A stretch of 64,000 nt of DNA from a virus (IMGVR_UViG_3300025892_000012:1-64000); one strand, 5' to 3'; positions 24,330-64,000 are shown, numbered from the stretch's first letter. Notes: generated by a model not told the origin, from the letters alone. A program made the numbers and translations.

Positions 24330-27300
24330 TTGCAGGTTTTAAATGTTAAACCACAAAGCACAGATGTTGGGGCATCTAAACCACCCCAAAGAAGAGAAGT
24401 TATTCTTCAAGATCACCATCAAACTTGGTTAGCAAACTTTAATGAAATACGTGATGAAGTAAATCAAGCAACTTCCTATTCTATACCAAGAACATTAGTA
24501 TATAGAAATGAGTACGGAAGTTTTGGTGCAAATACTATTGCGGCAAATCAACTTATATTCGGCAACTCAGACCCAACTGCAGATCCTGAAGATTCACCAA
24601 TAATAATGAATGCGGATGGATTGACTTTAGGACCAAGCACAACACTAAATGTAAAAGGTCCTGCCAAATTTTCCAATACTGTGCATCTAGATGCTAATAG
24701 TGAATTTAATTTAGATGGTCCATTAAACAGTAACAGTGTAGCTAATTTTAGGGATGTAACTAATTTTTATGCATTTACTCATTTTCATCCATCAAGTGTA
24801 CTTTTTGTAGACACTACATCTATTTTTAATGACAGTGTTAGTATCAACGCTCCTTTAGGAGTAGAAGGTCCAGTAACTATTGTAGGAGATATCAATCAAA
24901 CGGGTAACAATACAATTGATGGAAGTGTTGATATTGAAGATGATTTAATTATCCGTGGTAATCTTACCGTTTTGGGTGAAAAAACTCAACTAGAAGTTAC
25001 CGAACTTGTTGTAGAAGATAAAAATATTGTAGTAAACAAAAATGATGTATATACGCCGTTAGATGCTGGTTTGTTCATACAAAAAGGAACAATTGAAAAT
25101 GCTGGATATTTCAAAGTTCATAGTTCTGATGATAGTTTACTTCAATTAAAAGCACCGACCGGTTTTGACATCACGATTGATATTCCATCACAAGATGTTA
25201 AATTTAGATTAGAGAGTGACTTTGCTGCAGATCAAGAGTTGCTAACAACATCTAATGTAGCATTTCGTTCACTAGTATTAGATAAAACTTTTAGTAGACA
25301 TAATTTAGTACCAAGCTATACACAAAACCATGATGCTATAGCTGCAGGAAAAGGTTGGATTTCTACTCCTTGGGTTTATACAAACGCAGTAGAGTCATCT
25401 GATAATTTAATAGATGCTAACACTACTGGCTTGTTTATGGGTACTACAACTCATACAATGAGAAATGAAATCAGTTTTTTGTCAAATGGTAACACCAAAT
25501 TTCATATTGATTATTTTGGAAATATCGGGATGGGTACTCTTAACCCTCTCTCTGATTTACATCTTGCAAGTATAAATCCAGAAATTACAATCACTACTGA
25601 AGACTATAAATCAAATGCAACTTTATCATTTACTGATTTTGCAGAACGAGTAGATGATTCTGGAATGTATCTTGCTTTTGATGCAAATACAGGTTCTGGA
25701 ATACTAGAACTCACAACTCAAGATTATCAAACCAAATTTGACATATCTGTCGGTGGATATAATAAAACTCCAGAAGTAACAATTTCAAATGACAAAGTAA
25801 GTTTCTTTACTGATGTAGATGTTTTGGGCAATGGTTATGTAGATAAAGAATTGATTGTTGATAGTACTTTATATGTAAGAAGCAATAAAGTAGGTGTAAA
25901 TGTAGTAACACCTGCGTATGCATTTGATGTTTCTGGTTCAATAAGAGGAAACAGTGATTTAATTTTAGATGGCTTAGAACCATTTATAAAGGTTGGCACG
26001 GTCACTTCTCTTGAACCAAATGGAAGAAGTGGATTAGTAGTACAAGAAGAAAGTCCTGTTGTGCAATTAAGTACTACTGAAGATGAGTACAGACATGGTT
26101 CTATTTTATATTTCAATGATTCTTATCATGATTCTAATTGGGTTATTGGAACAAGCTTAAATGGTAATAAATTAGATTTTGGTAAATCATTTAGCAAGTC
26201 TGCAAATACTCCAGAATATGGTTTGGATGAATATCATGGTCAAACTCTTTTAAGATTTACAGAAGAAGATAGAAGTGAATTTTATCTTGAAGCAGATAAT
26301 TCAAATGCAGCATTAATTCTAAACACAAGAACAAATGGTATTCATTTATATCTTGGTGAAGAAAATAATGTATTAGGACCAACAATTCCTAGACCTACAA
26401 CTACCTATACATCAAATGATTTTAGTTCTGTAATCCAATGGCATGGTAGTGAAGTAACTGTTGGTGAACTCACTTATTTCCCAAATGGAAATGACGATGG
26501 TGAATTTGGCTCATTTAGATTCTCAAGAACAGATGGTCAAGTAAATCAAGATGTACCAAGTGCAAAAGTTGGAGCAAATCAATTTTATGCTAATGATAAA
26601 ATAGCAGTTTCCCAAACTACACCTACTGCTGAACTTCATATTACAAAAGATTATTCAGAAGCTTTAATTGAAACAGAAGACGCACAAACATTTATAAAAA
26701 TGTTTGTGAATGATTCAACTGAAACTGTAAATATGCGAGGAGAAAATTCAAGTGGTGCCGCAACTTCTTATTTTGCTTTTAATGCATCAAATCCCGCTTC
26801 ACTTGATTTTACATCAGGTGACCATTCACTCACAGGTTCTTCAGATCATTCAACACAAATCATAACACTATCATTATCAGAAACAAGAAATCCATCCAAC
26901 TTTAAATTACAAACTGAGTCAAATAAGAATTTCATAGACATTACCAGAACTTCTTCTAATTTAAATTATTCATTGGATGTTATTGACCAAGATAATGTGA
27001 TAACCGACAGTAAAAGTTCAACAACTCTAGAGATGAAGTCTGAGTTAAACGAAGCTTTAAAATCTATTCAATATAATTATTATTCAAGTACAAATAATTT
27101 GATTAAATCATTTTACTTAGATGATATTAATCAAACAATTAGCGAGTTAAATGCTTCTAATAATTTAGATTATTCAACAATATTAGATGAACCAAATAAA
27201 AAATTAACTTATCATAGTAATGTATACACAGTCTTTAATAAACACACATTAACTGATGTTGATATTGAATATCGTTCTCAAATAGCTAATGATAAACATT

Positions 27301-50235: not shown

Positions 50236-50514
50236 ATGGCAGCAGGAACACTAAGGTTAGCTAATGTAACAGTATTTGAAGCTAACACTACAAGTGGAAA
50301 TATTAAAGTTCCTACAGGAACAACGCTAGAAGGTATCACCGATATTCTTGATTTGAGCTTAAATAGTGCTGCATTTTCAACTTCTACTAATATTTTGTCA
50401 TTGGGAAATTTTAGCGGAAATACAGTAACAGTTGATTTAAGTACATTGAGTGGTGGAGGAGGTGGCGGCGCATCACTAGGAGATGTCACTGCATTAGCAA
50501 TAGCACTCGGTTAA
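50236..50514 (+). CDS. Short fibre-like protein ending in an AIALG motif
   Basis: TVDLSTL, Gly linker, C-terminal VTALAIALG. Confidence 0.55.
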   Translation: MAAGTLRLANVTVFEANTTSGNIKVPTGTTLEGITDILDLSLNSAAFSTSTNILSLGNFSGNTVTVDLSTLSGGGGGGASLGDVTALAIALG

Positions 50515-50543: not shown

Positions 50544-51965
50544 ATGGCAAAACAAACTATTAATAGAGGAATAGCACCAAATGATAACACAGGTGATACG
50601 CTAAGAGATGGTGCTGATAAAATAAATTCAAATTTTAATGATTTATACGAAAATTTGGGAGATGGGGATAATTTATCATTTAATGTACATACGTATACTA
50701 CTAGCACACAAAATCTAGAAAATAAAACATTAATTGCTGCTAACAATAATATAGTTATTAATGTAAACGAATTAAATGATGTTAGTATACCAATTCCTGC
50801 AGTAGATTCTCAAATATTAGAATACAATGGAACTCTTAATCAGTGGGTAGTAGCAGACCGTGTGGGTAGACATTTAGTTCCGAGTTCTAATAATACATTT
50901 GATTTAGGAAGTCCGAATTATCAATTTAAAGATTTATATCTAAGTGGGGAAACACTTTACTTGGGTGATATAAAATTATCTTCAAACAATGGAGAATTTA
51001 AAGTTGAATCACAAAGTAATCCATCTGCTGGAGGATTTAAGCTAAGTGGATTAATTGATGTATCTCCAACTGCACCAACAAATACTCAAGTACTAACATG
51101 GAATGCTTCTGCAAATACATGGTATGCGGCAAATGCAGCCGGAGTTAGTGGTGTTGCTTCGTATTTAAATGGAAATTTAGATACTCATATTATACCAGAC
51201 ACTAATGCCGCTTATGATATTGGTTCTGCAGAATACAAAATAAGACACTTATATCTTTCTGACAATTCATTATGGGTAGGAGATGATCATAAGATAAGTG
51301 TAGAAGAAGGTGAAATTAAATTTAAAAAGTTAAAAAGAACAGCACAACATGTACCCAAAGTAATTTTAGATGCTGCAATTGCGGAAGGCATTGGTGGTGA
51401 TTTAGATTCAGTAGTTGCTCATGCTTTGAATTGGATGAATACACAATTAGATCCAAATGCAATTGACTTATCTGATGCTAGAATAAAAATTGAATTATGG
51501 TTTAAATACGCTATTCAAAACATTACTAACTTCATTGTTAATTTTCCTACACCAGGTGATTTATTCCCCAATGTAAATGATGCTAATTATGATAATAATG
51601 ACTATGAAGAAAATGTTAAACTAGGACAAAGTACGCATATATTTGATGTAACAAATGCCAATAATACTTCATATCTCTTTACAGACTTAGGAAATATATG
51701 GTTTCCAACATCAACACCTAATCCCACACTATATCTAAGAAGAGGTGAGATTTATAACTTTAGAATAAATGCAAGCGGTCATCCATTTAGAATCCAAAAT
51801 TCAAGTGTTGATAGTGATTTAGATGCTGTTGCTACTTCGGGTATAGTTGGTAATACAACAGAATCGGGCACACTTGTGTTTAAAGTACCTATGGAAACAC
51901 CTAGTACACTTTATTATCGGTGTACTGTGCATTCAGTCATGTCAGGAACTATAAACATTGTTTAA
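50544..51965 (+). CDS. Baseplate wedge gp9/gp10-like N-terminus, fibre body, cupredoxin-like C-terminal domain
   Basis: MAKQTIN.G..PND.TGDTLR.GADKIN.NF..LY; DLGS....F..LYLS repeats; GHPF...LYYRCTVHSVM. Confidence 0.75.
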   Translation: MAKQTINRGIAPNDNTGDTLRDGADKINSNFNDLYENLGDGDNLSFNVHTYTTSTQNLENKTLIAANNNIVINVNELNDVSIPIPAVDSQILEYNGTLNQWVVADRVGRHLVPSSNNTFDLGSPNYQFKDLYLSGETLYLGDIKLSSNNGEFKVESQSNPSAGGFKLSGLIDVSPTAPTNTQVLTWNASANTWYAANAAGVSGVASYLNGNLDTHIIPDTNAAYDIGSAEYKIRHLYLSDNSLWVGDDHKISVEEGEIKFKKLKRTAQHVPKVILDAAIAEGIGGDLDSVVAHALNWMNTQLDPNAIDLSDARIKIELWFKYAIQNITNFIVNFPTPGDLFPNVNDANYDNNDYEENVKLGQSTHIFDVTNANNTSYLFTDLGNIWFPTSTPNPTLYLRRGEIYNFRINASGHPFRIQNSSVDSDLDAVATSGIVGNTTESGTLVFKVPMETPSTLYYRCTVHSVMSGTINIV

Positions 51966-51974
51966 AAAAAGTAG

Positions 51975-52319
51975 ATGGCAAATATATTTAAATTAAAAAC
52001 AAAAGCTAATGTATCTAATTCAACGGCTGATACAATTTATACAGTTCCTGCAACTACAACAGCCGTTGCTATTGGATTAGTTTTAGCAAATAAGTCTACT
52101 CATGTAGTTACTGCAACCGTTGATTTAAATTCAACTACAAATGATAACGAATTAAATACAGCAGTCACTCTTTTTCATAACATAACAATTCCTGATAAAA
52201 GTACACTTGAGGTTTTTGGCGGACAAAAACTGATACTACAAACAACAGACCAAATTAAAATAACTAGTGATACACAAAATGGCTTAGATGTAGCCTTGAG
52301 TGTCTTAGAAATAAGTTAA
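51975..52319 (+). CDS. Small beta-sandwich tail protein (paralog of 53239)
   Basis: MAN.F...IYTVP.TTT...GL.LAN...STLEV.GG.K.IL...D...LSVLE. Confidence 0.65.
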   Translation: MANIFKLKTKANVSNSTADTIYTVPATTTAVAIGLVLANKSTHVVTATVDLNSTTNDNELNTAVTLFHNITIPDKSTLEVFGGQKLILQTTDQIKITSDTQNGLDVALSVLEIS

Positions 52320-52323
52320 ACTC

Positions 52324-53235
52324 ATGCCTACAAAAATACTAGAACTTGCAAATGATTTCTCTACATTATATAAGAAATATAATAATGAAATCGTACAACA
52401 TGTTCTTGTGGAAAATTCAGTCATTGATGCCGGTTTAATTGGTAATAATCATGTATCTACTGCAAGTATTCAACTTGATAATACAATCATTAGAATTGGC
52501 ACTTCTAGAGGTCTTTTAGATAATGACCTTCTCACCTATGATGCACTTCAATATAAATTTGTAAATAAAAGTTTAGCTGAATTTGGTTTTGTTGGCGCAG
52601 CCGACATAGCTAATAGCATAACTACAGATACTCTCACTGCAAACACAATCAGCGTTACTGGTGACTTAGTTGTTGCTGGTAATACAATTACACTTGATAC
52701 TCAAACATTACTAGTTGAAGATAACATTATTGTACTTGGTGCAAACAATAATACAAATCTTATAGATTTTGGTTTTGCCGGTCAATATAGTTACGATAAT
52801 GGAGCAACTACAAAATATGCAGGTATCTTTAGAGATGCAAGTATTGGAAAATTTTATTTGTTTGAAAACTATCCTCTAGAACCTCCCACATCTACAATGA
52901 CGGGATTCAATCCCAGTTCAATGTCGGGAACATTAATACTTTCAAATCTAGAAGTTCTAGATGATATAACTTTAAACACTGCAGTAATAGCATACAATGC
53001 GGCTAACGGAACATTAGATGTAAATGGAAATGCTCTTTCTTATGATGCTGGTTCAACTCTGGCTTCTTTATCGGATGTTAATACAACAGCTAATGCCAAT
53101 CAAGTTCTCACTGCTGATGGTGTAGGTAACTTCAATTTCAACACAGTAGATTACAATAATCTGATAAATAAACCAGACGCACAACTTGCGGCCTTAGCGG
53201 ATGATGCATTCATAAATTCAATAATTTTTGGTTAA
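52324..53235 (+). CDS. Tail fibre-like structural protein
   Basis: GDLVVAGNT.T...L.VEDNIIVL, YAGIFRDAS, L..LSDV; C-terminal FINSIIFG. Confidence 0.65.
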   Translation: MPTKILELANDFSTLYKKYNNEIVQHVLVENSVIDAGLIGNNHVSTASIQLDNTIIRIGTSRGLLDNDLLTYDALQYKFVNKSLAEFGFVGAADIANSITTDTLTANTISVTGDLVVAGNTITLDTQTLLVEDNIIVLGANNNTNLIDFGFAGQYSYDNGATTKYAGIFRDASIGKFYLFENYPLEPPTSTMTGFNPSSMSGTLILSNLEVLDDITLNTAVIAYNAANGTLDVNGNALSYDAGSTLASLSDVNTTANANQVLTADGVGNFNFNTVDYNNLINKPDAQLAALADDAFINSIIFG

Positions 53236-53238
53236 TAA

Positions 53239-53583
53239 ATGGCGAATACACTTTTATCTAAAACTTATGATGGCGGAAATAATTATGTTACTGCCACAAC
53301 AGATGTTAACATTTATACTGTGCCTACAAGTACAACTTCCATTTTAATTGGGTTTACAATATCAAATTTAACAACCGGTATCATAGCTTTGAGTGTTAAA
53401 ATTTTAGATTCAGATGCGGCACAAACTGTACACTTTTTGAAAAATGTAGTCATTGATAGTGGCTCTACTCTTGAAATAATGGGGGGCAATAAAATTATTC
53501 TAAATGCTAGTGATGCAATACGTATGCAGTCCGATACACCAAATTCCTTTGATGTTGTACTATCACTAGTGGAACAGACATGA
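53239..53583 (+). CDS. Small beta-sandwich tail protein (paralog of 51975)
   Basis: MAN....IYTVP.STT..LIG..ISN...STLEI.GG.K.IL...D...LSLVE. Confidence 0.65.
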   Translation: MANTLLSKTYDGGNNYVTATTDVNIYTVPTSTTSILIGFTISNLTTGIIALSVKILDSDAAQTVHFLKNVVIDSGSTLEIMGGNKIILNASDAIRMQSDTPNSFDVVLSLVEQT

Positions 53584-53834
53584 GCAAAGCTTTTAATATA
53601 GCTACAAATCTTGGAGCATATAAAAGTGCTTTTGATTCAAGTGGTAATATAAATGTACCAATGTATTCAAACCATGACACAACTGAAGATATAACTGTAG
53701 TTGCAAATACTAATTCTTTAATGCCAGGACCTATTACAGCAAACAATGTAGCTGTAAGCGGACATTTAATTGTAATAAATGAATTTCATGTAACTGGTAA
53801 TATTACAGTTACTGGTTCTGTATCATTAATATAA
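53580..53834 (+). CDS. Array adaptor A1
   Basis: N.L..GP.T....V.G.L.V C-terminal beta motif shared by five array genes. Confidence 0.6.
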   Translation: MSKAFNIATNLGAYKSAFDSSGNINVPMYSNHDTTEDITVVANTNSLMPGPITANNVAVSGHLIVINEFHVTGNITVTGSVSLI

Positions 53835-53854
53835 ATGAACAAAGAGGAGAATAA

Positions 53855-54451
53855 ATGCCTACGTTTACACTAGGAGGAAAAACACTAGCAACACAAACAG
53901 GAAGTGCAGAGCCACAAATAGCAGATGCTGTAACATTTCCTGGAAAATCTGGAGCAATATTACAAACAAAAACTTATATAGATCCCACATCATGGACTCA
54001 GGTACTTGACACTGATTTTGAAACGCTTGTAAATGGGTCTGGAGTTAAATTTGCTGTATCTATTACTCCTACTCTAACAGGGTCTAAAAATATAGTAACA
54101 GTAACTTTTGGAACTTTTTATGCACACAATGCTCAAAATTATGCATTAGGAGTTAGATTGTGTAGAAATGGCACTCCAGTAAGATTAAGCACAGCCACCG
54201 ACAGTACACCTCTAGTAACTTTTAGTGCTAGTAGTTTATATGCAAACTATATGCCAGCATGTACTGCAGTTGTTCTTGATGAAACCTTGAATACTAAAGA
54301 TGTATTAGTTGAGTACACTTTACAAATGCAAAGACATGCAATAAGTACATACACAATGGGTATGAATAAAACTGGAACCACAAGAACTGATAATTCTGCC
54401 TATGGACAGCGTACATCCAGTCAAATTATGGCACAGGAGGTTGTGGTATGA
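53855..54451 (+). CDS. Array tip B1 (putative receptor-binding domain)
   Basis: GAGGAG RBS; FTLGGKTLATQTG...FP...GAILQ...SITPT...IMAQEV. Confidence 0.6.
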   Translation: MPTFTLGGKTLATQTGSAEPQIADAVTFPGKSGAILQTKTYIDPTSWTQVLDTDFETLVNGSGVKFAVSITPTLTGSKNIVTVTFGTFYAHNAQNYALGVRLCRNGTPVRLSTATDSTPLVTFSASSLYANYMPACTAVVLDETLNTKDVLVEYTLQMQRHAISTYTMGMNKTGTTRTDNSAYGQRTSSQIMAQEVVV

Positions 54452-54822
54452 TTACAATAACACAAGCAGTACAAGCACTAGGAGGAAAAAGTTTTAGTGT
54501 TGAAGAAGAAAATCCAAATAAAGTTTTTTTTAATAGAGGTAATCCATTAAACATAACAACTGCTCAAATAAAAGAAAAATTTGACGAATTAGTTGCAGAA
54601 TTTAATCAGACAGAACCCATTAGATTACTAAGAGAACAAAGGGATAAATTACTTACAGAAACCGATTGGGTAACTGCAAAAGCAATAGAAACAGAAGAAC
54701 CAATACCTGCTGAATGGAAAACCTATAGACAAGCACTCAGAGATTTACCAGCTACTGCAGAACCACAACTAGATGAGTTTGGTAATTTAATTAATGTAAC
54801 TTGGCCGGAGAAACCAGAGTGA
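54448..54822 (+). CDS. Array chaperone C1 (tail fibre assembly chaperone-like)
   Basis: LR..RD.LL.ETDW...W.TYRQALRDLP...WP.KP. Confidence 0.75.
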   Translation: MITITQAVQALGGKSFSVEEENPNKVFFNRGNPLNITTAQIKEKFDELVAEFNQTEPIRLLREQRDKLLTETDWVTAKAIETEEPIPAEWKTYRQALRDLPATAEPQLDEFGNLINVTWPEKPE

Positions 54823-55091
54823 GTGGAACACTTAAATTAAACGATACACTATTTGCTACAGAAAATAGTGGAGATATAAGTGTAACTGCGCATTTTACAG
54901 AAACTAATGTTGTACAAAACTCAAATGTTATAACACAGAGTTTGACGATAGCAAACAATAAAAATGCAACAATTTCAGGACCTGTATCTGTAAGTGGTTT
55001 AACAATCAATGGAAGTTTAAATGTAATGGGTAATTTAACAATTCCTACAACACAAAATTTAACAATTACAGGAAGATTAAGGATATTATAA
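54819..55091 (+). CDS. Array adaptor A2 (GTG start)
   Basis: GGAG RBS; GTGA overlap with the C1 stop; B-like N-terminus plus GPVSV...INGSLNV C-terminus. Confidence 0.6.
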   Translation: MSGTLKLNDTLFATENSGDISVTAHFTETNVVQNSNVITQSLTIANNKNATISGPVSVSGLTINGSLNVMGNLTIPTTQNLTITGRLRIL

Positions 55092-55092
55092 T

Positions 55093-55686
55093 ATGGCAGA
55101 TTTAATTTTAGGAAACACTACTGTAATGACAGAAAGTGGAGGTAATGTTACACTTGCTGATTTTTTTGAAGCTAAAATATTACAAATAGATTATGGAATG
55201 CACAGTAGCACTTATTACGACAGTGGCCAGGGTACTGCATTTCCTGGAACCACTTTACCTGGAGAACTTGGTGATGGAAGTGTAAATTTAACTCCTACCA
55301 GTTCCAGTAATTTTATAGAGATTTCGTATACAATGCATTGTGGACAACATGCCACATGGAATTTATTTTTCTTTAGAACATATTACAGTGTAGACGGAGG
55401 TAGTACTTATGCATATGTAACAGATACTGGAGGTGGAGCAATAGGTTATCATTCAGGTTGGAATGGCTCACCTTTTATAGCATCTGCCTGTGTGATTAAA
55501 CCGGTGACTTTTTTTACTAGCACAAATCAAAATATAAAATTTCGAATGAATTCTTGTAAAGAAAGTAATTCAGCAACAGGATTAGCACTCAACGTAAACA
55601 CAAGTACTAATGATAGCTCAAAAACTACAAATTTTTCAGGTGCTTGTTCATCATTGATAGTAAAAGAATTAAAAGGACCATTATGA
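55093..55686 (+). CDS. Array tip B2
   Basis: MADLILGNTTVMTESGG...KILQ...LTPTSSSN...SLIVKEL. Confidence 0.6.
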   Translation: MADLILGNTTVMTESGGNVTLADFFEAKILQIDYGMHSSTYYDSGQGTAFPGTTLPGELGDGSVNLTPTSSSNFIEISYTMHCGQHATWNLFFFRTYYSVDGGSTYAYVTDTGGGAIGYHSGWNGSPFIASACVIKPVTFFTSTNQNIKFRMNSCKESNSATGLALNVNTSTNDSSKTTNFSGACSSLIVKELKGPL

Positions 55687-56045
55687 CAGACATTGTTAAC
55701 GCTATAGAATCTTTAGTTGATAAAGCTAAATTCAGTATTGAAGATGGAGATTATGACAAAATTGTTTGGAAAGATGAAAGAACTATTCCCACAAAAGCAC
55801 AAATAGAAACAAAGATTACTGAATTAGAAGCTGAAGAACCTGTGCGAATTTTACGATTACACAGAGATAGATTATTACAAGAAACAGATTGGGTATCTGC
55901 TAGAAGTGTTGATTCAGGTACACCAGTGTCTCAAGAATGGGTTGCATATAGACAAGCACTTAGAGATTTGCCAGTTACAGCAGAACCACAACTAGATGAA
56001 AATGGTAATTTGACAAATGTCACTTGGCCAGTAAAACCAGTATAA
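55683..56045 (+). CDS. Array chaperone C2
   Basis: ATGA overlap; RDRLL.ETDW...YRQALRDLP..AEPQLDE.G....VTWP.KP. Confidence 0.75.
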   Translation: MTDIVNAIESLVDKAKFSIEDGDYDKIVWKDERTIPTKAQIETKITELEAEEPVRILRLHRDRLLQETDWVSARSVDSGTPVSQEWVAYRQALRDLPVTAEPQLDENGNLTNVTWPVKPV

Positions 56046-56055
56046 AAGGATTAAA

Positions 56056-56331
56056 ATGGATTACACAATAACATTAACAGATACTGAAGACAAAGCACTG
56101 GCATATGCCGCTGCAAGTCAACAGGATTGGATTGATAACGTAGTTCACAATCGTTGTCGCATTGCAATTGATGACATTGTAAAACTTGCAATAGACAAAT
56201 TTATTGCTGCTGGTGAAAGCATGCCAGGAAATAAAGACCAAATTGTTGCAATTGCATTTGAAAGAGGTTGGGTCAAAACTGCAGCACAAAGAAATGAAGA
56301 AGCACAAGCCGAAATGGAGAAACAAGCATAA
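56056..56331 (+). CDS. Small helical tail-associated protein
   Basis: AAGGA RBS; YTITLTDTE.KAL...QDWIDN....R.RIAID.I...GWVKTAA.RN. Confidence 0.55.
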   Translation: MDYTITLTDTEDKALAYAAASQQDWIDNVVHNRCRIAIDDIVKLAIDKFIAAGESMPGNKDQIVAIAFERGWVKTAAQRNEEAQAEMEKQA

Positions 56332-56816
56332 TGCCAGTTTTAGGAGCCGTAGCAAGACCTAATATCACTAGTTCATCAACAATCATAGATCATAAAGAAT
56401 ATCTTGGTGGACATGCGGATATAATTTCAAATCCTGGCTATTATACTTTTTATGCACACTATACACCAGGAAATGTATCTGTCATAGTGCGTGGAATAAA
56501 TATGGCGAGTAGTGACTATACGGCATCTAGTGGCAAAGATATTTTAATATCCACATCAGCAATAACATTAAACTCTGATGATATCATACAAATTATCGGA
56601 TATGGAACTAGCACTTCTGCCATATTAACCAAAAGCGATATGAACATCACTGGTGGACAGGCAATCAATCTAGAAAAAGTGGATAGTAAGATTTATATGA
56701 ATCGTAATCAGTATTCTGCAAATTTACATGTGCCCGCAGGATACAATGCATTCTTTGCTGGACCTATGAATTTTACAGGCACATTAACAATTGATGGCGT
56801 TTTAAACATAATTTAA
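56331..56816 (+). CDS. Array adaptor A3 with N-terminal baseplate-type repeat
   Basis: YTPGNVSV...G......DYTA...L...D.I.I repeat, then GYNA..AGP....TLTIDGVLNII. Confidence 0.6.
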   Translation: MPVLGAVARPNITSSSTIIDHKEYLGGHADIISNPGYYTFYAHYTPGNVSVIVRGINMASSDYTASSGKDILISTSAITLNSDDIIQIIGYGTSTSAILTKSDMNITGGQAINLEKVDSKIYMNRNQYSANLHVPAGYNAFFAGPMNFTGTLTIDGVLNII

Positions 56817-56825
56817 AAAGAAGAT

Positions 56826-57404
56826 ATGAGTGGAGTTATAAAACTAGGTTCAACAACATTTGGCACAGAGAACAATGGCAAGATAGATTTGACCAATGTT
56901 GGTGAAATCGCTTACAATAATCATCCTGCATTTTTTGCATGGTTAAGTACTCTTCAAAATAACTTTACTGATCAAACATATGTCAAAGTTGCGTATAATT
57001 CCATAGATATAGACACTCACAATTCTTTTGATACTACTTCTTTTGTTGGTAGATATACTATACCTGATGGTTGTAGTGGAACTTATCAAATAAGTGCTAG
57101 AGTTACTGGATGGGCAGTAACAGATACAAACCTAAGAGATGACCACTTATATTTAAGAAAAAATGGTTCTAATTATGAAGGTGTGGCGAATAGATGGGCA
57201 GGAAATGATATAGCACACCATTCTAATGTGCTAACAACAATTATAGATTTAAATGCTGGAGATTATTTAGAGATTTATTGTTTTATGAATTCAGTAAATA
57301 GTGCTGATAATAGAGTTTTATCAAAAATGGGTGACTACAACTTAAATAGTGGTTGGGAGGAAATATCAAGATTAACAACTTTTAGTGGATATCGTATAAG
57401 GTAA
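56826..57404 (+). CDS. Array tip B3 (C1q/TNF-like)
   Basis: PAFFA...KV.Y...D....FD....RYT.P...G.YQ.SA...LRKNG...IIDL.AGDYLEIY...FSGYRI. Confidence 0.65.
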   Translation: MSGVIKLGSTTFGTENNGKIDLTNVGEIAYNNHPAFFAWLSTLQNNFTDQTYVKVAYNSIDIDTHNSFDTTSFVGRYTIPDGCSGTYQISARVTGWAVTDTNLRDDHLYLRKNGSNYEGVANRWAGNDIAHHSNVLTTIIDLNAGDYLEIYCFMNSVNSADNRVLSKMGDYNLNSGWEEISRLTTFSGYRIR

Positions 57405-57411
57405 TTAACTT

Positions 57412-57981
57412 ATGGCATCAGAAATACAATTAGGCGGTAAAACAATATTCACGCAAGATGGTAACAACATGCCAGAAATGCATACGAATGTTGTAATACC
57501 CGAAGCAACAAAAACAGCATTAGGATTAAATGCTATACCAGCAGGAACAACAGCAGAAAGACCAGGTACTCCTGCAGTTGGTATGATTCGTTACAACACA
57601 GATTTTAAATGTATTGAATACTATGATACTAATAGTCTATCTGGTTCAACTTGGCACAGTGTAGGGCCTTTTGTTACTGTAAAATTTAATGGCTTTAATG
57701 GTTCTGTCATGAATTGGTGGGGTAATTATTCAAGTATAACGAGAAATGCAACAGGACATTATACATTAACTTTTGCAACAGCAGTTGGTGATTATATGTG
57801 GTATATTGATACCGATACAAATAATTCAAGGAGTGGTAATCACGTAATGGGACTAAGTGGTTTTGGTAGTTATTATTTTGTTTATAATTCAACTTATTTT
57901 ACATTTACAATAGGTGATATTATTACACCAGCACGGTCAGATGCCGATATAGTTTGGGTTTCTCTATGGAGTATATCATGA
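57412..57981 (+). CDS. Array tip B4
   Basis: IQLGGKTIFTQDG; IPAGTTAERP...GMIRYNT; VKFNG...SSITRNATGHYTLTF. Confidence 0.6.
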   Translation: MASEIQLGGKTIFTQDGNNMPEMHTNVVIPEATKTALGLNAIPAGTTAERPGTPAVGMIRYNTDFKCIEYYDTNSLSGSTWHSVGPFVTVKFNGFNGSVMNWWGNYSSITRNATGHYTLTFATAVGDYMWYIDTDTNNSRSGNHVMGLSGFGSYYFVYNSTYFTFTIGDIITPARSDADIVWVSLWSIS

Positions 57982-58397
57982 ATAATTTAATACTTTACAC
58001 AAATGCAGAAGGTTCAGTCTCTAGCATTTGTATCAATGGTGCAGAAGACATCACAAAAGTCAGAAAGTATATATTAGACCATAGTTTAAATGATGCTATT
58101 ATTATAGATGAAGCCGCACTACCAGAAAAAAAATTAGAGTATTGCAAAATAGTAAATGGTGAGTTAATATCAGATGAAGAATATAAAACAAATAAAGCCA
58201 TGCAATTGTTGCGAGAAGAAAGAGAAAAGTTATTGATTCAATCTGATTGGCGTGACCTTCCTTCTTATCCAGGTACAGACCAAGAAGCATGGCGAACATA
58301 TAGACAGGATCTAAGAGACATGACTGAATTAGAATCTCCTAAAATAGATCAATATGGTAATCTAATTGAAGTAGTCTGGCCAACACCACCGGAGTAA
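57978..58397 (+). CDS. Array chaperone C3
   Basis: GGAG RBS, ATGA overlap; LREER..LL..SDW...W.TYRQDLRD...WP.PP. Confidence 0.72.
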   Translation: MNNLILYTNAEGSVSSICINGAEDITKVRKYILDHSLNDAIIIDEAALPEKKLEYCKIVNGELISDEEYKTNKAMQLLREEREKLLIQSDWRDLPSYPGTDQEAWRTYRQDLRDMTELESPKIDQYGNLIEVVWPTPPE

Positions 58398-58398
58398 A

Positions 58399-58629
58399 AT
58401 GGGAAACATTTCAATCATCAAAGGTTTTGATTCAGAAGGAATCAGACCAAGCAACGAAATAGTTGTAGACAAGAATGTAGTAGCTGAAGAAGGTTATTCA
58501 CAATTGTTAATTGGTCCTGTTACTGTTCCCAATGTTACTGTAAATGGTAATCTAAACGTGATGACTGAAATAAATATTACTGGAGACTTAACAATTGGTG
58601 AGAACGGTCAACTCAACATCATCGGATAA
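58399..58629 (+). CDS. Array adaptor A4
   Basis: GPVTVPNVTVNGNLNV...G.L.IG.NG.LN..G; close paralog of A5. Confidence 0.6.
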   Translation: MGNISIIKGFDSEGIRPSNEIVVDKNVVAEEGYSQLLIGPVTVPNVTVNGNLNVMTEINITGDLTIGENGQLNIIG

Positions 58630-58634
58630 AACGA

Positions 58635-59159
58635 ATGGGTAATCTTGTATTAAATGGGCAGACAGTATTAGAGCAAGTCGGAACTGCTAAACCTACAGTT
58701 GGTTCTGGTTGGCCTTCTGGTACAATTTGTGGATTTGAAAGATACATTACACCTATTACAAGTCATCAATCTAGTACTACCACATATCAAACTATTACAG
58801 GAACACAAATAGATTATACACCAGTGACAGGTAGTACTTATGTATATTATAGTACAAGTTTTTTAATGACTGGAGAAGATAATAGTGCTTTAGGACATTT
58901 TAAACTATTATTAGATTACAATACAGTAAATGGAGCGGAGTTTACAATAAGGCAGGGAGTTTATTGGGCAGGAAATCTTATATATTTAGAATGGATATTT
59001 GATTCATGGAGTGGTCCTAAAAATATATTATGTGAGTGTAGGGAGTATAATGCCTCATACACATTTAGATTACATCAAAATGTTAATTGGGATGGAGCAA
59101 GTGATTCGGCAACTGGACCATATAAATCTCCAGTAACTAAAATATATTCTATAATGTGA
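58635..59159 (+). CDS. Array tip B5
   Basis: LVLNGQTVLEQVG...WPSGTI...YTP. Confidence 0.58.
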   Translation: MGNLVLNGQTVLEQVGTAKPTVGSGWPSGTICGFERYITPITSHQSSTTTYQTITGTQIDYTPVTGSTYVYYSTSFLMTGEDNSALGHFKLLLDYNTVNGAEFTIRQGVYWAGNLIYLEWIFDSWSGPKNILCECREYNASYTFRLHQNVNWDGASDSATGPYKSPVTKIYSIM

Positions 59160-59166
59160 GAAACTA

Positions 59167-59766
59167 ATGGCAACACTTAAACTCAACAACACAACAGTTT
59201 TTACAGAATCAAATGGTGCTGCGAGTATTCCAAGTGCGGTCAAGTTTCCTGCTGGACATGTTGTACAAGTTGTAGAATTACATGATGATAATTATGTAAC
59301 AATAAATGCTGCATCCATTAAATGTTATGATGTTCAAATTACAACCAAACAATCAAATTCAAAAATTTATGTGATAGCAAATTTAGGTCACAGTAACTAT
59401 AATCATGATGTTGATAGAGCATTGGCAATGGGATATAAAGTTGGTGGGGTATCCACAAATTCTTCTGATTATATTGCTTTACAAAGTTCAAAATATACTA
59501 GGCAAATAGAAGGAAATTTAGGTAGTTTTTGGACACAAGATACAGGAGACCCAGGTGGAGGAAGTTGGAGTGGAACTTACGGAATAAGTTCGGTGATGTT
59601 TACTAAACTACATGCTCCTAATGTTCCTAAAGATACACTATTATCATATTCGTTGTGGGGTTCTTCAGATGGTACATTCTACATTGGCACATCCAATTCT
59701 ACAGGAGGTGGAACACCTAATGGTTATGACAATAGTATTACTTTAATGGAGATTTCTAATGGTTAA
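59167..59766 (+). CDS. Array tip B6
   Basis: MATLKLNNTTVFTESNG...FPAGHVVQVV...IT....SKI...SITLMEI. Confidence 0.62.
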   Translation: MATLKLNNTTVFTESNGAASIPSAVKFPAGHVVQVVELHDDNYVTINAASIKCYDVQITTKQSNSKIYVIANLGHSNYNHDVDRALAMGYKVGGVSTNSSDYIALQSSKYTRQIEGNLGSFWTQDTGDPGGGSWSGTYGISSVMFTKLHAPNVPKDTLLSYSLWGSSDGTFYIGTSNSTGGGTPNGYDNSITLMEISNG

Positions 59767-60133
59767 GCCAAAACAAATAACCATCAATAATGCTATGGTA
59801 GAATATTATGGCAATTATAGTTGGGGAATGACTGGACCGAACTATACAGATATTATTTGGAAATCTAATCCTGATGAGAAACCAAGTTTAGAAGATTTAG
59901 AAGAAAAGGTAATACTGTTACAACAACAAGAACCATTAAGATTTTTGAGAGAAAAAAGAAACATTTTGTTAAAAGAAACAGATTGGAGAGCAACAGTTGA
60001 CTATCCTGGAACAGACCAAGAGGCATGGTTGACTTATAGACAGGCACTGAGGGATTTACCTGCAACAGCAGAACCAGAATTGGATGAAAACGGAATGCTT
60101 ACAAACGTAACTTGGCCAGAGGAACCAGTATAA
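59759..60133 (+). CDS. Array chaperone C4
   Basis: LREKRN.LL.ETDW...YPGTDQEAW.TYRQALRDLPATAEP.LDENG...VTWP. Confidence 0.75.
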   Translation: MVKPKQITINNAMVEYYGNYSWGMTGPNYTDIIWKSNPDEKPSLEDLEEKVILLQQQEPLRFLREKRNILLKETDWRATVDYPGTDQEAWLTYRQALRDLPATAEPELDENGMLTNVTWPEEPV

Positions 60134-60717
60134 TGGCAATACTAAAGTTAAACAGTCATGAAGTGATTACACAAAGTGGAGACAATCGTCCAGAGTTTGG
60201 TGCAAGTGTGCCTGCTGGTTGTATGTTACAACTTAAATCAACTACTAAAACCGACCATTGGGGTGGTTCTGGAGTTTCAAATGGAAATTCAGGTGTTACT
60301 CCATATGCTGTAACTGGATTATCTGTTACAATTACTCCAAAGTTTAATACAAGTAAAATATGGTTATTTGCTGATATTTTTATGGGATTAAATAACTTTG
60401 AAGGATACAATTATTATTGGTCAATTTATAGAAGTATTAATGGAGGAACTAGTTCAGCAATTGGAGTAGGTACAGATAGTAGTGCAACATTTTTTGTTAT
60501 GGGTGGTCATAATATGTATCCTTCTGGAAGTAGTATTCCTTTTGCGGGAGGTAATTCTAAAAATTATTTAGACAGTCCATCTACAATAGATAGTATAACT
60601 TATCAAATAAATGTAGGTGCTGCAGATTCAAATGCTATTTTATATGTTAATAGAAGAGCTAGTGGTGGCAATCCTTGTGGGGTATCAACAATCACAGCAA
60701 TGGAGATAGCAGCATAA
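60133..60717 (+). CDS. Array tip B7
   Basis: TAATG overlap; MAILKLN...ITQSG...VPAGCMLQ...LSVTITP....SKI...LDSPST...ITY...STITAMEIA. Confidence 0.62.
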   Translation: MAILKLNSHEVITQSGDNRPEFGASVPAGCMLQLKSTTKTDHWGGSGVSNGNSGVTPYAVTGLSVTITPKFNTSKIWLFADIFMGLNNFEGYNYYWSIYRSINGGTSSAIGVGTDSSATFFVMGGHNMYPSGSSIPFAGGNSKNYLDSPSTIDSITYQINVGAADSNAILYVNRRASGGNPCGVSTITAMEIAA

Positions 60718-61268
60718 TGGCAACTCTACAACTCGGAAACAAAACACTGTTTACACAATCTGGAAGTGCTGATCCGGAAATAACATCAAATGTAAATTTG
60801 ACAAATGCAGATATGTCTAATGCAGATATGTCTAATGCAAATATTAAAACATCATTTAGTTCATTAGATACTTCTGCATCTCAAGGACCAACAACAGATT
60901 TAACAAATACAACATTACCTATATTTGCTTGTAGAGCATGGGTACATTTTAACGGCATGTCATATGTTACTGTAGAAAGTGAATCTCATTGTGATATATA
61001 TGCTTCTGGTAACGTAAGTAAAGTAGTAAGGGTTGGCGTTGGTTTGTATAAAATTTATTTTTTAACCCCAATGCCAGATACTAATTATTGTGTAACTGGT
61101 TCGCATGTTGCTTCAACCAATAGTTATGGTAATGTTGGTGGAATCGGAGGTTACAATGCTACGGCAGGGGGTATTGAAACAACTTATGTAGGAATAACAT
61201 ACCAATACCACTATAGTAGTTATGGTTTCGTTGACCAAGACCATTTACATATTGCTATTTTCAGATAA
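60717..61268 (+). CDS. Array tip B8
   Basis: MATLQLGNKTLFTQSG; CRAWVHFNG...SGNVS.V...G.G.Y...F...MPDTNY.V. Confidence 0.62.
   Translation: MATLQLGNKTLFTQSGSADPEITSNVNLTNADMSNADMSNANIKTSFSSLDTSASQGPTTDLTNTTLPIFACRAWVHFNGMSYVTVESESHCDIYASGNVSKVVRVGVGLYKIYFLTPMPDTNYCVTGSHVASTNSYGNVGGIGGYNATAGGIETTYVGITYQYHYSSYGFVDQDHLHIAIFR
60804..60845 (+). repeat. 15-bp tandem repeat (NADMS)
   Basis: AATGCAGATATGTCT x2 plus AATGCAAATATT. Confidence 0.8.
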
Positions 61269-61278
61269 GGTATAAAAC

Positions 61279-61860
61279 ATGGCAACACTTACGATTGGTG
61301 GAAAAACAGTAGTAACGCAGACAGGCACGGATGAGCCTATAATGACAAGTAATGTTGTGATGGATAATGTTAATGTGAACAATGCATTGGCAAGTGCTAC
61401 GTTTCCTGCTGGACATATGTTAAGACATTTTTATGATGAATATAATTTTAATGGGTCTCCTGCTACAATCACAACAACCGCATCAAATTGGAGCGGTCTA
61501 CAAATTGATATAATTAATCCTAATACAAGTAATTATTTATTTTTACAAATGTTTATTCCTGACGTATATTGTAGCGGTTCAAGTAATGGACTTGGAGGTG
61601 GTTTTGTTTATAGTACAAATTCTTTTAGTTCAGAATCAATTTTAGGTTCATCTGCTTGGTATTTTAATCAACATTCATGGACAAGTTCTGGTTCAAATTT
61701 AAATAATACTAGTTTGACTGTTAGAGTATTACATCCAACAAGTAGTAACTATTCAATAAGACCATATTTTCAGGCTTATAATGCAAGTTTAAGTATAGGA
61801 CAAGGCAATAGTGGCAATAAGTCTATCGCAACATTATTTGCTATGGAGATACAAGGATGA
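61279..61860 (+). CDS. Array tip B9
   Basis: MATLTIGGKTVVTQTG...FPAGHML...LFAMEIQG. Confidence 0.62.
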   Translation: MATLTIGGKTVVTQTGTDEPIMTSNVVMDNVNVNNALASATFPAGHMLRHFYDEYNFNGSPATITTTASNWSGLQIDIINPNTSNYLFLQMFIPDVYCSGSSNGLGGGFVYSTNSFSSESILGSSAWYFNQHSWTSSGSNLNNTSLTVRVLHPTSSNYSIRPYFQAYNASLSIGQGNSGNKSIATLFAMEIQG

Positions 61861-62291
61861 AAACATATTTTGAAGTGGTTATAGATTTAGTAGGTATTGA
61901 AAATATTTGTAACGGACCATCCAATGGACCTGTATCTCAAATTAAATTTATAAATGGATTTGTAAACATACCCACTGAAGAAGAAATCCAAGCAAAGATA
62001 GCAGAACTTCAAGCAGCCGAACCACTACGTCTATTAAGAATAGAACGAAACCAAATTCTTCAACAATCTGATTGGGAAGTTCAACGCAATACAGAACGCA
62101 ACATTACAGATTCAAATCTAATAGACTATCGTAATGCACTCCGAGACCTTCCACAAGAAATAGCAAATGGAAACATTCCAGCACCTACACTGGATGAGAA
62201 TGGAATGCTGGTGTTTGAACATTGGCCGAATCGCTATGAGATAAATATAGAAGATGAACCAACAGCAAACAATTCAGCTAATACAGTTTAA
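61857..62291 (+). CDS. Array chaperone C5
   Basis: PTEEEIQAKI.EL...LR.ERN..L..SDW...YR.ALRDLP...LDENGML...WP. Confidence 0.72.
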   Translation: MKTYFEVVIDLVGIENICNGPSNGPVSQIKFINGFVNIPTEEEIQAKIAELQAAEPLRLLRIERNQILQQSDWEVQRNTERNITDSNLIDYRNALRDLPQEIANGNIPAPTLDENGMLVFEHWPNRYEINIEDEPTANNSANTV

Positions 62292-62515
62292 TGCCGTCAA
62301 AAAGTAACGCCAAACAAAAATCAATTATAGTTGGTATTAACACAAAAACTTTTACCAATGATGTTGAAGTTGCTGAAAACTATTCTGCAATTCTCAGTGG
62401 TCCTGTAAGTGTACCAAACATCACTGTCAATGGTACTTTAAATGTGATCAACAATCTAAGTGTAGATGGTGATATTGTGATTGGTCCAAATGGTAATTTA
62501 AATCTAACAGGATGA
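62291..62515 (+). CDS. Array adaptor A5
   Basis: GPVSVPNITVNGTLNV...G...IG.NG.LN..G. Confidence 0.6.
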   Translation: MPSKSNAKQKSIIVGINTKTFTNDVEVAENYSAILSGPVSVPNITVNGTLNVINNLSVDGDIVIGPNGNLNLTG

Positions 62516-62516
62516 T

Positions 62517-63239
62517 ATGCCCAACGCAAGTTTGACAATAGATGGAACAGAAGTTATCAGCAAAGTAAATGGCTCAACTTCTATTCAAATTGACACCGTA
62601 GAAAGTAATGATATAAAAAATGCACATGGAAATGTTGTTGGTTTTAGATCTGTTCAAATATTTGACACTGTTGGTACATCAACATGGACAAAGCCCGCTG
62701 GTGTAAATTATATAAAAGTTTATGTTACTGGCGGAGGAGGTGGCGGTGGTTCTCACAACCAAGATGATGCTCAAGGAGGTGGTGGAGCAGGGGGAACTAC
62801 AATTAAATGGATTGATGTACGACAAGTAACAAGCGTATCTGTCACAGTTGGAGTTGGAGGTACACGTTCTATTGGTAATTCAGGAGGTGGTGGAGGTCCT
62901 GGAGGCACATCATCTTTTGGTTCGTATTGCTCTGCCACAGGTGGTGAAGAACCAGAAACTTGGGCAGTTGGTGGATATGGTGGTGTTGCTACTGGAGGAG
63001 ATATCAATTTGTATGGTAATGCAGGAATATGTGGCAACATAGATGGCGGTGGCAATGAAGAAAGTAGTGGAGTTGGAGGTGCTTCTTATTGGGGTGGAAC
63101 AGGCAGAGGAGGTAGTGTTTGGGGTGCAAGGTCTAATCCAAATGGATGGGGATGTGGTGGTTCAGGCACCCATGTAAGCACTAATAATGAAGGTGCTGAT
63201 GGATACAAAGGTGCTGTTATTGTAGAGGAATACGTATGA
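62517..63239 (+). CDS. Array tip B10 (glycine-rich adhesin-type domain)
   Basis: TWTKPAGV..IKVYVTGGGGGGG...GGGGAGG...VTVG.GG...GGTSSFG...G..GAVIVEEY. Confidence 0.68.
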   Translation: MPNASLTIDGTEVISKVNGSTSIQIDTVESNDIKNAHGNVVGFRSVQIFDTVGTSTWTKPAGVNYIKVYVTGGGGGGGSHNQDDAQGGGGAGGTTIKWIDVRQVTSVSVTVGVGGTRSIGNSGGGGGPGGTSSFGSYCSATGGEEPETWAVGGYGGVATGGDINLYGNAGICGNIDGGGNEESSGVGGASYWGGTGRGGSVWGARSNPNGWGCGGSGTHVSTNNEGADGYKGAVIVEEYV

Positions 63240-63571
63240 AAAAGGCGCTTATACATTTAGATAAAATTGTACAAGTTTCAGATTCCACATTTGAAGTTCA
63301 TTCCAGTATGAAATGGGTAGACTGTCCAGATAATTGCACTACTAAATGGAAATATGAAAATGAACAATTCATTGAAAATGTTTATACAGATGAAGAAAAA
63401 TTAAGAGATTTGAGATTAGCAAGAGGAACTAAGTTAAGAAAAACAGATTGGTGGGTTTTACCAGATAGAACTCCAACACAAGAGCAATTAAACTATAGAC
63501 AAGCTTTACGGGATATTACTAACACATATACATCACTTGATGATGTTATTTGGCCGGAGAAACCTGAATAA
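63236..63571 (+). CDS. Array chaperone C6
   Basis: WVDCPD; LR..R...L..TDWW...YRQALRDIT...WPEKP. Confidence 0.72.
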   Translation: MKKALIHLDKIVQVSDSTFEVHSSMKWVDCPDNCTTKWKYENEQFIENVYTDEEKLRDLRLARGTKLRKTDWWVLPDRTPTQEQLNYRQALRDITNTYTSLDDVIWPEKPE

Positions 63572-64000
63572 TGCCATTCATCGGAGCACCGTCACCTAAA
63601 GAATTACAATCCATAGAAACCATTTCTGACCGTAAAACATATACGGGGGATGGCATAAAAACTATTTTTGGCGTTAGCTATGAATCCAATCATATTAGTG
63701 TATTTCAAAACGGCTTAAAACTTATTGAAGGTATTGACTATAATATTGCATCTACTGGTCAGTATATAACATTTGTTATTGCTCCAGAAAGTGGAGATGT
63801 AATTGATTTAGTCGGTGCAAGTGGAGTTACTAATTTAGCACAATCAAGTTATTCAAGAGAAACATTTGTCTCTCTCGCAAATCAAACATCATTCATTCTT
63901 TCAACAAATATAGATGATTCTTTTAGAACAAATGTATATGTAAATGGAATAAGATTAACAGAGACTGATTATACAATATATAATTCAAATAATACACTTG
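63571..64000 (+). CDS. Partial tail/baseplate repeat protein (runs off window end)
   Basis: TAATG overlap; MPFIG..P...YTGDG..T.F...VFQNGLKL....DY...G..I repeat, second repeat VYVNGIRL...DY. Confidence 0.65.
   Translation, partial: MPFIGAPSPKELQSIETISDRKTYTGDGIKTIFGVSYESNHISVFQNGLKLIEGIDYNIASTGQYITFVIAPESGDVIDLVGASGVTNLAQSSYSRETFVSLANQTSFILSTNIDDSFRTNVYVNGIRLTETDYTIYNSNNTL

Follow-up and report, generated by a model that had tools for sequence, protein, structure and literature searches.

Co-varying gene junctions in a tandem array of putative tail-fiber tips, adaptors, and chaperones of an uncultured marine T4-like myovirus

Introduction

How might a phage build its host-recognition apparatus from many small, separately translated proteins instead of a few long fibers? 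This question is raised by IMGVR_UViG_3300025892_000012:1-64000, a stretch of 64,000 nucleotides (the window) which is the starting portion of a viral contig of 93,492 bp from IMG/VR. Between positions 53580 and 63571 it harbors 22 open reading frames (ORFs), all on the + strand, which were grouped into small adaptors (A), tips (B), and chaperones (C) in the order ABC, ABC, xABBC, ABBC, BBBC, and ABC. An earlier note on this DNA had described these genes and had proposed that all tips dock through one common N-terminal strand onto common adaptor sockets. While its ORFs, coordinates, gene overlaps, and gene order were all confirmed, the common plug and socket had to be replaced by at least eight co-varying classes, a different one for each A gene of the window.

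The T4-like myoviruses which infect cyanobacteria, SAR11, and further streamlined marine bacteria belong to the most abundant viruses of the sea. We consider it reasonably probable that the region represents one section of a very large host-recognition cluster, expressed late, of an uncultured marine member of this group, and that its genes work together as described below. Separately translated tips, each supplied with a short peptide for docking, an exchangeable head, and a helper for folding, are probably the means by which these phages assemble and reshuffle a recognition apparatus with many tips.

Co-variation of socket ends and plugs

For every B gene, the N-terminal 34 residues of the product were placed beside the C-terminal 34 residues of the protein encoded before it, which revealed at least eight recurrent pairings of a socket end with a plug, A1 to A5 each belonging to a different class. 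For example, the socket end ...GPVTVANGVIITVPxGSTWTIV was paired with the plug MATSIIKTDEIRRLND, ...VNGTLNV..NLSV...IGxNGNLNLTG with MPNASLTIDGTEVI, and ...INITGDxxIGxNGQLNIIG with MGNLxLNGQTVL. With at least eight co-varying cognate classes, the plug is therefore not universal. The first class, represented by nine contigs, displayed a median identity of 69% in the C-terminal 35 aa of A, the socket end, and of 86% in the N-terminal 35 aa of B, the plug, as compared with 21% in the B head and 17% in the rest of the socket-bearing protein (78–371 aa). An interface between interacting proteins would be expected to leave such a pattern, with a kept junction and replaced flanks, to which linkage alone also contributes. 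These values, together with the finding of one head on unrelated N-termini, are also in line with the docking by the N-terminal strand proposed in the earlier note, the N-terminal c. 35 aa of the tips behaving as a separate anchoring module (86% versus 21% for the heads). Its restriction of the socket to small adaptors was too narrow, as the same motif also ends long stalks, including one of the cultured cyanophage ACG-2014j. Outside the window, the plugs encoded at contig positions 81136 and 82083 were 64% identical over 36 aa. New in this analysis are the co-variation of sockets and plugs in classes and the occurrence of a head plus chaperone N-domain on unrelated plugs.

Family B tips and their heads

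In the alignment, all ten B proteins shared the N-terminal pattern MxxLxLGxxTxxTxxG, as had been described, and consisted of a strand segment of c. 35 aa followed by a head. A hidden Markov model of the first 30 B residues also matched independent contigs. Structure prediction with AlphaFold2 (AF2) covered two proteins, B6 and A4, each as a single chain. For B6 (59167–59766, 199 aa), it resulted in a predicted local distance difference test score (pLDDT) of 90.7 and a predicted template modeling score of 0.85 from a 117-sequence alignment, with three short strands in residues 1–30 and a TNF/C1q-like jelly roll in residues 31–199. Fold matches of this head comprised the C-domain of chlamydial Pgp3 (Z 12.2, root-mean-square deviation 2.7 over 129 residues; Foldseek E 6e-6), the Photorhabdus TNF-like lectin PLTL (Z 10.4), BclA (Z 9.4), EDA-A1 (Z 8.9), the short-fiber CBD of cyanophage A-1(L) (Z 8.2), C1q (Z 7.8), and the head of the Tuc2009 receptor-binding protein (RBP) (Z 7.2). 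Solved examples of the TNF/C1q-like jelly roll are homotrimers.

The Gly-rich nature of B10 (62517–63239, 240 aa), suggested earlier, was confirmed by a match of residues 51–237 to PF21722 (Gly_rich_2; 44.7 bits, cut-off 24.3, E 2.1e-11), and the protein also matched the C-terminal end of the tail-fiber family phrog_21412 (E 1.5e-56, profile positions 1221–1451 of 1452). Likewise, the heads of B7 (60133–60717, 194 aa) and B8 (60717–61268, 183 aa) matched the C-terminal ends of tail-fiber PHROGs (phrog_6942 and phrog_11355, respectively), phrog_6942 showing that the B7 head also exists in fused form. For B3 (56826–57404, 192 aa), the assignment of a C1q-like head agreed with ESM Atlas features only, in which the nearest clusters (0.96) were viral with 11–23% of members carrying PF00386; a Pfam C1q match was not obtained at E <= 0.01. 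The other tips were B1 (53855–54451, 198 aa) with a MEI-type head, B2 (55093–55686, 197 aa) with a plug and a weakly MEI-like first half, B4 (57412–57981, 189 aa), a relative of B8 with the fiber motif TAERP...RYNT, B5 (58635–59159, 174 aa) with the class IV plug MGNLxLNGQTVL, and the MEI-type B9 (61279–61860, 193 aa).

Against the MEI-type profile, B3 and B8 had only their first 16–25 residues in common, which marks the N-terminus of B as a separate module. The heads are not all unrelated as had been noted, since the MEI type is itself TNF/C1q-like. The B profile matched 107 proteins, all of them from marine metagenomes. No longer, fused proteins were found with a class I tip or the MEI profile as query, a search of weak evidential value. 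A 1313-aa fiber (contig position 86820) contained a B4-like segment at residues c. 800–885 with no A motif before it, and neither A nor B matched gp35, gp36, or gp37 in Pfam or PHROGs.

Judging from their heads, the PHROG C-terminal matches, and the chaperone gene that follows, the B proteins seem to be receptor-binding tips in their own right, as the earlier note had them. That they are instead soluble or host-surface lectins, acting in superinfection exclusion or as decoys and not as virion parts, seems very improbable. Free TNF-like lectins such as PLTL and BC2L-C do exist, and the host-recognition clusters of pelagimyophages hold non-fiber genes too (PMC7029224). However, each set is followed by a tail-fiber assembly chaperone, the heads match the C-terminal ends of annotated tail fibers, the plugs are conserved together with fiber-stalk ends, and no signal-peptide-like N-termini were visible in the alignment.

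Family A adaptors

The A family was recovered with its common C-terminal motif as previously noted, the five proteins matching one another in BLASTP (E 1e-8 to 1e-18) and sharing xxNAxxxGPVTxxNxTVNGxLxV followed by hexapeptide-like repeats. Members are A1 (53580–53834, 84 aa, socket class VI), A2 (54801–55091, 96 aa, TTG start), A3 (56331–56816, 161 aa), A4 (58399–58629, 76 aa), and A5 (62291–62515, 74 aa, socket class III). Among 1.84 billion proteins, the A profile matched 212 cluster representatives, about half of which were stand-alone proteins of 62–110 aa, with others carrying the motif at the very C-terminal end of proteins of 130–660 aa; multi-repeat proteins of up to 5308 aa were matched as well. 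For A4, AF2 (61 homologs) predicted eight strands of 3–5 residues (pLDDT 85–93) which form a short beta-solenoid in residues 21–76. Fold matches in the PDB were all weak, with a bactofilin as the best one (Z 4.5), Foldseek revealed nothing at E <= 0.001, and the Pfam Bactofilin score of A2 remained below the cut-off (17 versus 27.9 bits). From the model, A would be a small beta-solenoid and a putative socket, whose motif also forms the last c. 35 residues of longer fiber stalks.

A3 had been taken for a plain small adaptor. Here, its first 134 aa turned out to match the N-terminal anchor domain of a 491-aa fiber encoded at 84509 (47% identity), so that A3 combines a fiber-anchor domain with an A-type socket. 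The 491-aa fiber itself (contig 84509–85984) consists of this A3-like anchor (47%) fused to a body similar to that encoded at 77512 (72.5% over 244 aa). Split and fused forms of the same fiber parts (56331–56816 and 77512–78507 versus 84509–85984) are hence present in one genome.

A plug-like N-terminus was detected on some small adaptors, e.g., on A2, which carries a B-like plug N-terminally and a socket C-terminally, and in the related locus L032 the genes A178, A82, and B185 follow one another. Judged by their sequence, such plug-bearing adaptors could chain sockets. None of the A proteins matched a T4gp10-like branching domain in Pfam or PHROGs; the phrog_677 match of the region belongs to a separate 473-aa protein at 50544.

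Family C chaperones

The reading of the C family as chaperone-like agreed with Pfam for six out of six copies. Together with seven further copies on the contig, they passed the PF16778 (Phage_tail_APC) gathering cut-off of 26.6 bits, the match covering the C-terminal c. 60 residues. These genes are C1 (54448–54822, 124 aa, 59.7 bits), C2 (55683–56045, 120 aa from the ATG, 58.9 bits), C3 (57966–58397, 143 aa), C4 (59759–60133), C5 (61857–62291, 144 aa), and C6 (63236–63571, 111 aa). Their first c. 50 residues are variable, and the C-terminal half is conserved (EPLRLLRIERN..TDW..YRQALRDLP..WP). In the PDB, the C-family profile found 2KZ6, an uncharacterized NMR structure, as the sole solved homolog and did not match the Pam3 gp25 chain, and a literature search on PF16778 found no papers. 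We propose that C is a tail-fiber assembly chaperone with a role like that of Pam3 gp25 or Mu Tfa.

Gene order in related loci

For comparison, 38 IMG/VR loci were fetched by chaperone and one more (L013) by a B6 homolog, about 30 of which were non-redundant and used for adjacency. In most fetched loci, the three families were found again, their number and order differing from locus to locus. Cassette content therefore varies among relatives, in agreement with the earlier note, for which invariance would have been a counter-argument. An A gene or motif was followed directly by B in 29 out of 41 cases and never by C, as expected from the suggested association of A with B, whereas B was followed by C 63 times, by B 24 times, and by A once; C preceded A in 19 and B in 27 cases. 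These counts lead to the grammar (A)B1-3C.

Cultured phages provided only few counterparts. Searches with tblastn using B6 and A4 resulted in no match, and at BLAST sensitivity both families are essentially absent there with the exceptions of phages ACG-2014j and S-WAM2, which were reached via the chaperone. In Synechococcus phage ACG-2014j (NC_062735), the 3474-aa fiber gp088 ends in an A-type motif (...SAGPIEIASGNTVTIVNGGAWSVV), followed by gp089 to gp091, three proteins of 192–201 aa annotated as 'tail fiber protein' and ending in a MEI/YEI motif, and by the 156-aa gp092, which matches the window chaperones (PF16778-like) and is located just 5' of neck genes. A stalk end with socket motif, three tips, and a chaperone-like gene thus follow each other as in the array. 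Unlike the array, this phage displays one stalk with a single BBB-C set, its socket lies inside the 3474-aa protein, and no stand-alone mini-adaptors were seen in the gp088–092 stretch. Within the reach of our literature search, nothing published was found on how these genes work. Related small tips were also present in S-WAM2. A search with the gp10-like 473-aa neighbor of the array gave a 99.8% identical contig (L011) as its sole result, with no cassette differences.

The runs of two or three B genes allow for a different reading, in which they encode hetero-trimeric tips like the three chains of C1q, so that each run with its chaperone would yield one composite tip for one socket. This would account for the single downstream chaperone which the 2–3 B genes of a run have in common, it agrees with the TNF/C1q-like head fold, the superfamily of which includes heterotrimers (C1q, lymphotoxin), and the three ACG-2014j tips are paralogs with similar plugs. 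We nevertheless regard it as unlikely, because the heads within a run differ in type and length (C1q-like B3 with B4; MEI-type B7 and B9 with B8), B3 and B8 share just the first 16–25 aa with the MEI profile, and the head plus chaperone N-domain moves as a single-gene unit.

The exchange unit and signs of recombination

The same head was found on unrelated plugs, the heads being 84–92% identical as compared with 20–34% for the plugs. With the head, the N-domain of the downstream chaperone is co-inherited (88–95% identity), whereas the C-terminal 65 residues of the chaperone were only c. 52% identical; the B6 head and C4 in locus L013 are one such case. Alignments displayed sharp switches of identity at FPAGHV(I/V)Q, at the border of plug and head, and at EPLRLLRIERDR in the middle of the chaperone. 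From these switch points, the mobile unit comprises the head plus the chaperone N-domain, c. 640 bp. The only sizeable DNA repeats between cassettes within the contig were stretches of c. 100–260 nt in the chaperone genes, and the mid-chaperone anchors of c. 110 nt displayed 85–90% DNA identity between paralogs.

Contig L011 carries the same cassettes and differs over 11.1 kb by 22 single nucleotide polymorphisms (SNPs), of which 14 are synonymous. Two groups of SNPs stand out: eight within 66 nt of C1 (54718–54783), seven of them synonymous, and four within 31 nt of C3 (58001–58031), all synonymous. Both look like short recombination patches. Gene conversion from a paralog in the same genome was rejected as the source of the C1 cluster, since the variant is no closer to any paralog of the contig, so that the donor was probably another phage. 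Codon 54 of B9 (position 61438) is changed from GAA to TAA (E54 to stop) in L011, which is either a tip knocked out in a population variant or a sequencing error. Switching by a diversity-generating retroelement or a shufflon/invertase was rejected for the contig, as no match to RVT_1 or a resolvase was found in the 93-kb contig (c. 52% of the genome) and the cassettes lie on one strand.

Such traces of exchange would also fit a reading in which most cassettes are a reserve, with few tips usefully incorporated and the rest serving as an archive from which heads are replaced by recombination. The sharp breakpoints, the chaperone anchors of c. 110 nt with 85–90% DNA identity between paralogs, the B9 nonsense codon in the 99.8% identical contig, and the resemblance of the C1 and C3 SNP clusters to recombination patches can all be named in its favor. 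We think it improbable, however, as none of the 22 ORFs is disrupted and each has a start of its own and is tightly coupled in translation, neither an enrichment of internal terminators nor any feature of silent copies was found, and 14 of the 22 SNPs against L011 are synonymous.

Organization of the array and its surroundings

Neighboring array genes in the window are spaced by -22 to +20 nt, many with ATGA or TAATG overlaps, and intergenic spacing across 49.5–83 kb ranges from -31 to +44 nt. For several B and C genes, the raw ORF list gives upstream TTG starts; the ATG codons at 55683, 57966, 60133, and 60717 suit the families better. No TATAAATA late promoter was found on the + strand between 42256 and 75954, and sigma-70-like promoters and terminators were not enriched in the array. 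For these reasons, one long, translationally coupled late operon would be the simplest reading of the sequence. A promoter of its own for each cassette was rejected, promoter and terminator motifs not being enriched.

The array of the window (53580–63571) is real but extends far past the reported limits. It is part of a fiber-gene region that spans from c. 50.2 kb to the contig end (c. 93.4–93.5 kb), and a six-frame search detected 13 PF16778 chaperones between 54.6 and 83.0 kb. ORF calling revealed at least 19 B-type tips on the contig, six small A proteins plus A3, and three longer stalks with the A motif at their end (80020, 86168, and 92873). Two gp12-like Collar-domain tips and three fibers of 330–350 aa, each followed by a gene for 68–78 aa, were also found. 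The related contig L043 carries further B-C pairs beyond the position of the last gene of this contig. Directly behind C6, a 930-aa fiber stalk starts at 63571 (+ strand; 63571–64000 in the window, to contig position 66363), and the array goes on past it.

Upstream of the array, the following genes are located on the + strand: one for a protein of 92 aa which begins with a B-like segment and ends in ...AIALG (50236–50514), one for the 473-aa protein similar to a baseplate wedge or tail-fiber connector (T4 gp9/gp10-like; 50544–51965; phrog_677, E 3.9e-52), Y1 for a small protein of 114 aa (51975–52319; phrog_26609/1276), one for a 303-aa fiber-like protein ending in ...INSIIFG (52324–53235), and Y2 for a 114-aa paralog of Y1 (53239–53583). 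Including a third member (contig 66372–66671), the Y proteins have 99–114 aa and are encoded 3' of fiber proteins ending in ...IALG/IIFG. In relatives, Y genes occur directly 5' of B genes with an MSYIGSKRSS-type N-terminus, and the Y proteins have a C-terminus (S.LEIT) similar to that of MEI-type heads. The Y family may represent a second kind of connector.

Neither Pfam nor PHROGs gave a family match for gene x (56056–56331, 91 aa). Its homolog in locus L035 adjoins a B3-like tip on the upstream side with no A gene between, and because of this position x may be a head-type-specific helper. A second small family (contig 71319–71555, 78511–78717, and 79757–79975; 68–78 aa with acidic Pro/Glu-rich C-termini) follows each of the 330–350-aa fibers, a position held elsewhere by PF16778 genes, and gave no significant match in Pfam or PHROGs. 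In two tandem proteins of 204 and 210 aa (contig 73675–74289 and 74297–74929; 46% identical), the T4 gp12-type Collar domain PF07484 was found, with a PF16778 chaperone encoded next; therefore, the array also takes in tip types other than jelly rolls.

The contig has a G+C content of c. 30% and an estimated completeness of c. 52%. Genes for terminase, sheath, portal, scaffold, and major capsid protein mark it as a T4-like myovirus, the capsid protein being at most 56% identical to that of any cultured phage (best matches Synechococcus phage S-CAM9 with 56% and Methylophilales phage Melnitz). From 17.8 kb on, it encodes almost exclusively very large fiber-like proteins, with small ones from c. 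50 kb. Upstream of the small-gene array, the stretch 17789–49474 encodes five proteins of 1278–2322 aa plus proteins of 491, 576, and 482 aa. The long fibers at 24330, 42414, and 46263 match PHROGs for 'long tail fiber distal subunit' (T4 gp37-like distal tip). Altogether, fibers appear to take up c. 75 kb of the 93-kb contig. Megablast of the 10-kb array region against 50,697 phage records resulted in no match.

Proposed mechanism

We propose that each tip trimer would fold with the help of its own chaperone and that the folded tip would dock by its plug onto the solenoid socket end encoded directly upstream, so that gene order would mirror physical order as in T4 genes 34–38. With at least eight cognate classes of plug and socket, the plug would direct a tip to one given stalk or adaptor. 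Within BB or BBB runs, tips of one plug class, e.g., those encoded at 81136 and 82083, probably share or compete for a single socket, and the outcome would be a branched, multi-specific, or mosaic fiber set. Diversification would occur by exchange of the head plus chaperone N-domain between the anchors FPAGHV(I/V)Q and EPLRLLRIERDR.

Several points weigh against this mechanism. Co-variation of adjacent genes can partly come from linkage alone, and the physical docking of A and B, the trimer state, co-expression, and incorporation into virions are what we infer from the sequences. Eleven B genes on the contig have no A directly upstream, and a docking site for them is a guess. The model names no partner for the N-termini of the small adaptors, and the fold of A4 was matched only weakly (Z 4.5), the single-chain model fitting a monomeric solenoid as well as a part of a trimeric beta-helix. 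By sequence, no homology to Pam3 gp25 or T4 gp36/gp37 was detected. Furthermore, the nonsense codon of B9 in L011 argues that not every tip is essential.

Taken further, the data might describe a previously undescribed natural combinatorial receptor-binding kit in marine T4-like phages, with at least a dozen sockets that each take any tip with the matching plug of c. 35 aa, recombining units of head plus chaperone N-domain, and at least 20 different lectin-like tips per virion. We put this forward as a tentative view that we hold to be somewhat less probable than its opposite. The same reserve applies to the notion that stalks as well as daisy-chaining mini-adaptors carry the sockets and that populations continuously re-deal the tips by homologous recombination at the two anchors.

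For practical purposes, the grammar gives an unannotated hypervariable island named parts, i.e., socket, plug, head, chaperone, and recombination anchors. It may be used for counting and classing tips in metagenomes, for following head exchange in populations, and for linking heads to host surface glycans.

Comparison with known systems

As a whole, the island corresponds to the host-recognition clusters of marine myoviruses, being tens of kb of poorly annotated fiber genes. In pelagimyophages, this cluster is hypervariable, has a mean size of 44.6 kb, and is located 3' of VrlC in the structural region, its fiber genes not being identifiable (PMC7029224), and structural variants at the population level were described for the clusters of pelagimyophages and cyanomyophages (PMC12379486). 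An A-B-C grammar, plug/socket classes, or a unit of head and chaperone are not described in these papers (PMC7029224; PMC12379486).

For a tip with its chaperone, the nearest working model is cyanophage Pam3, in which the simplified tail fiber gp24 is a TNF-like plus Gly-rich tip of a single fiber type, and the chaperone gp25 grips the head with a variable N-domain, trimerizes by a conserved C-domain, and is not found in virions (PMC9608196). The array shares with Pam3 the pairing of a tip with a chaperone of variable N-domain and conserved C-domain. It differs in that gp24 docks to the baseplate by an alpha-helical bundle, whereas the array tips have a beta-strand plug.

In T4, the order of genes 34-35-36-37-38 equals the proximal-to-distal order of the gene products with the chaperone/adhesin gene last, and short connectors join the segments non-covalently. 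The order of genes, the short connectors, and a Gly-rich adhesin domain are features which the array has in common with T4 and with the gp37-gp38 pairs of T2/S16, the gp38 adhesin of S16 carrying a Gly-rich receptor-binding domain (PMC9608196). In contrast to T4, the tips of the array are 5-fold shorter and occur in c. 20 copies, and no homology of A or B to gp35/gp36/gp37 was detected in Pfam or PHROGs.

The nearest working model for the docking logic comes from Klebsiella phages KP32, KP34, and K11, which possess an anchor-branch RBP1 and a second protein, RBP2, bearing a conserved peptide for docking (PMC6872550, PMC13352976). There as in the array, a second RBP is encoded separately and begins with a short conserved N-terminal peptide, and specificity modules are swapped with the junction kept; the combination of a conserved N-terminal peptide and a varying head was found here at the sequence level (86% versus 21%, n=9). 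The likeness to the Klebsiella and T4 systems appears to be functional only, as no homology to them was detected. In the Klebsiella phages, a T4gp10-like branching domain serves as the socket and depolymerase spikes as the heads, whereas the array combines a small beta-solenoid socket with jelly-roll heads of 130–200 aa and dedicated chaperones, with at least ten sockets per genome. If the proposed mechanism is true, compact chaperone-assisted docking joins the few known ways of fiber branching in phages.

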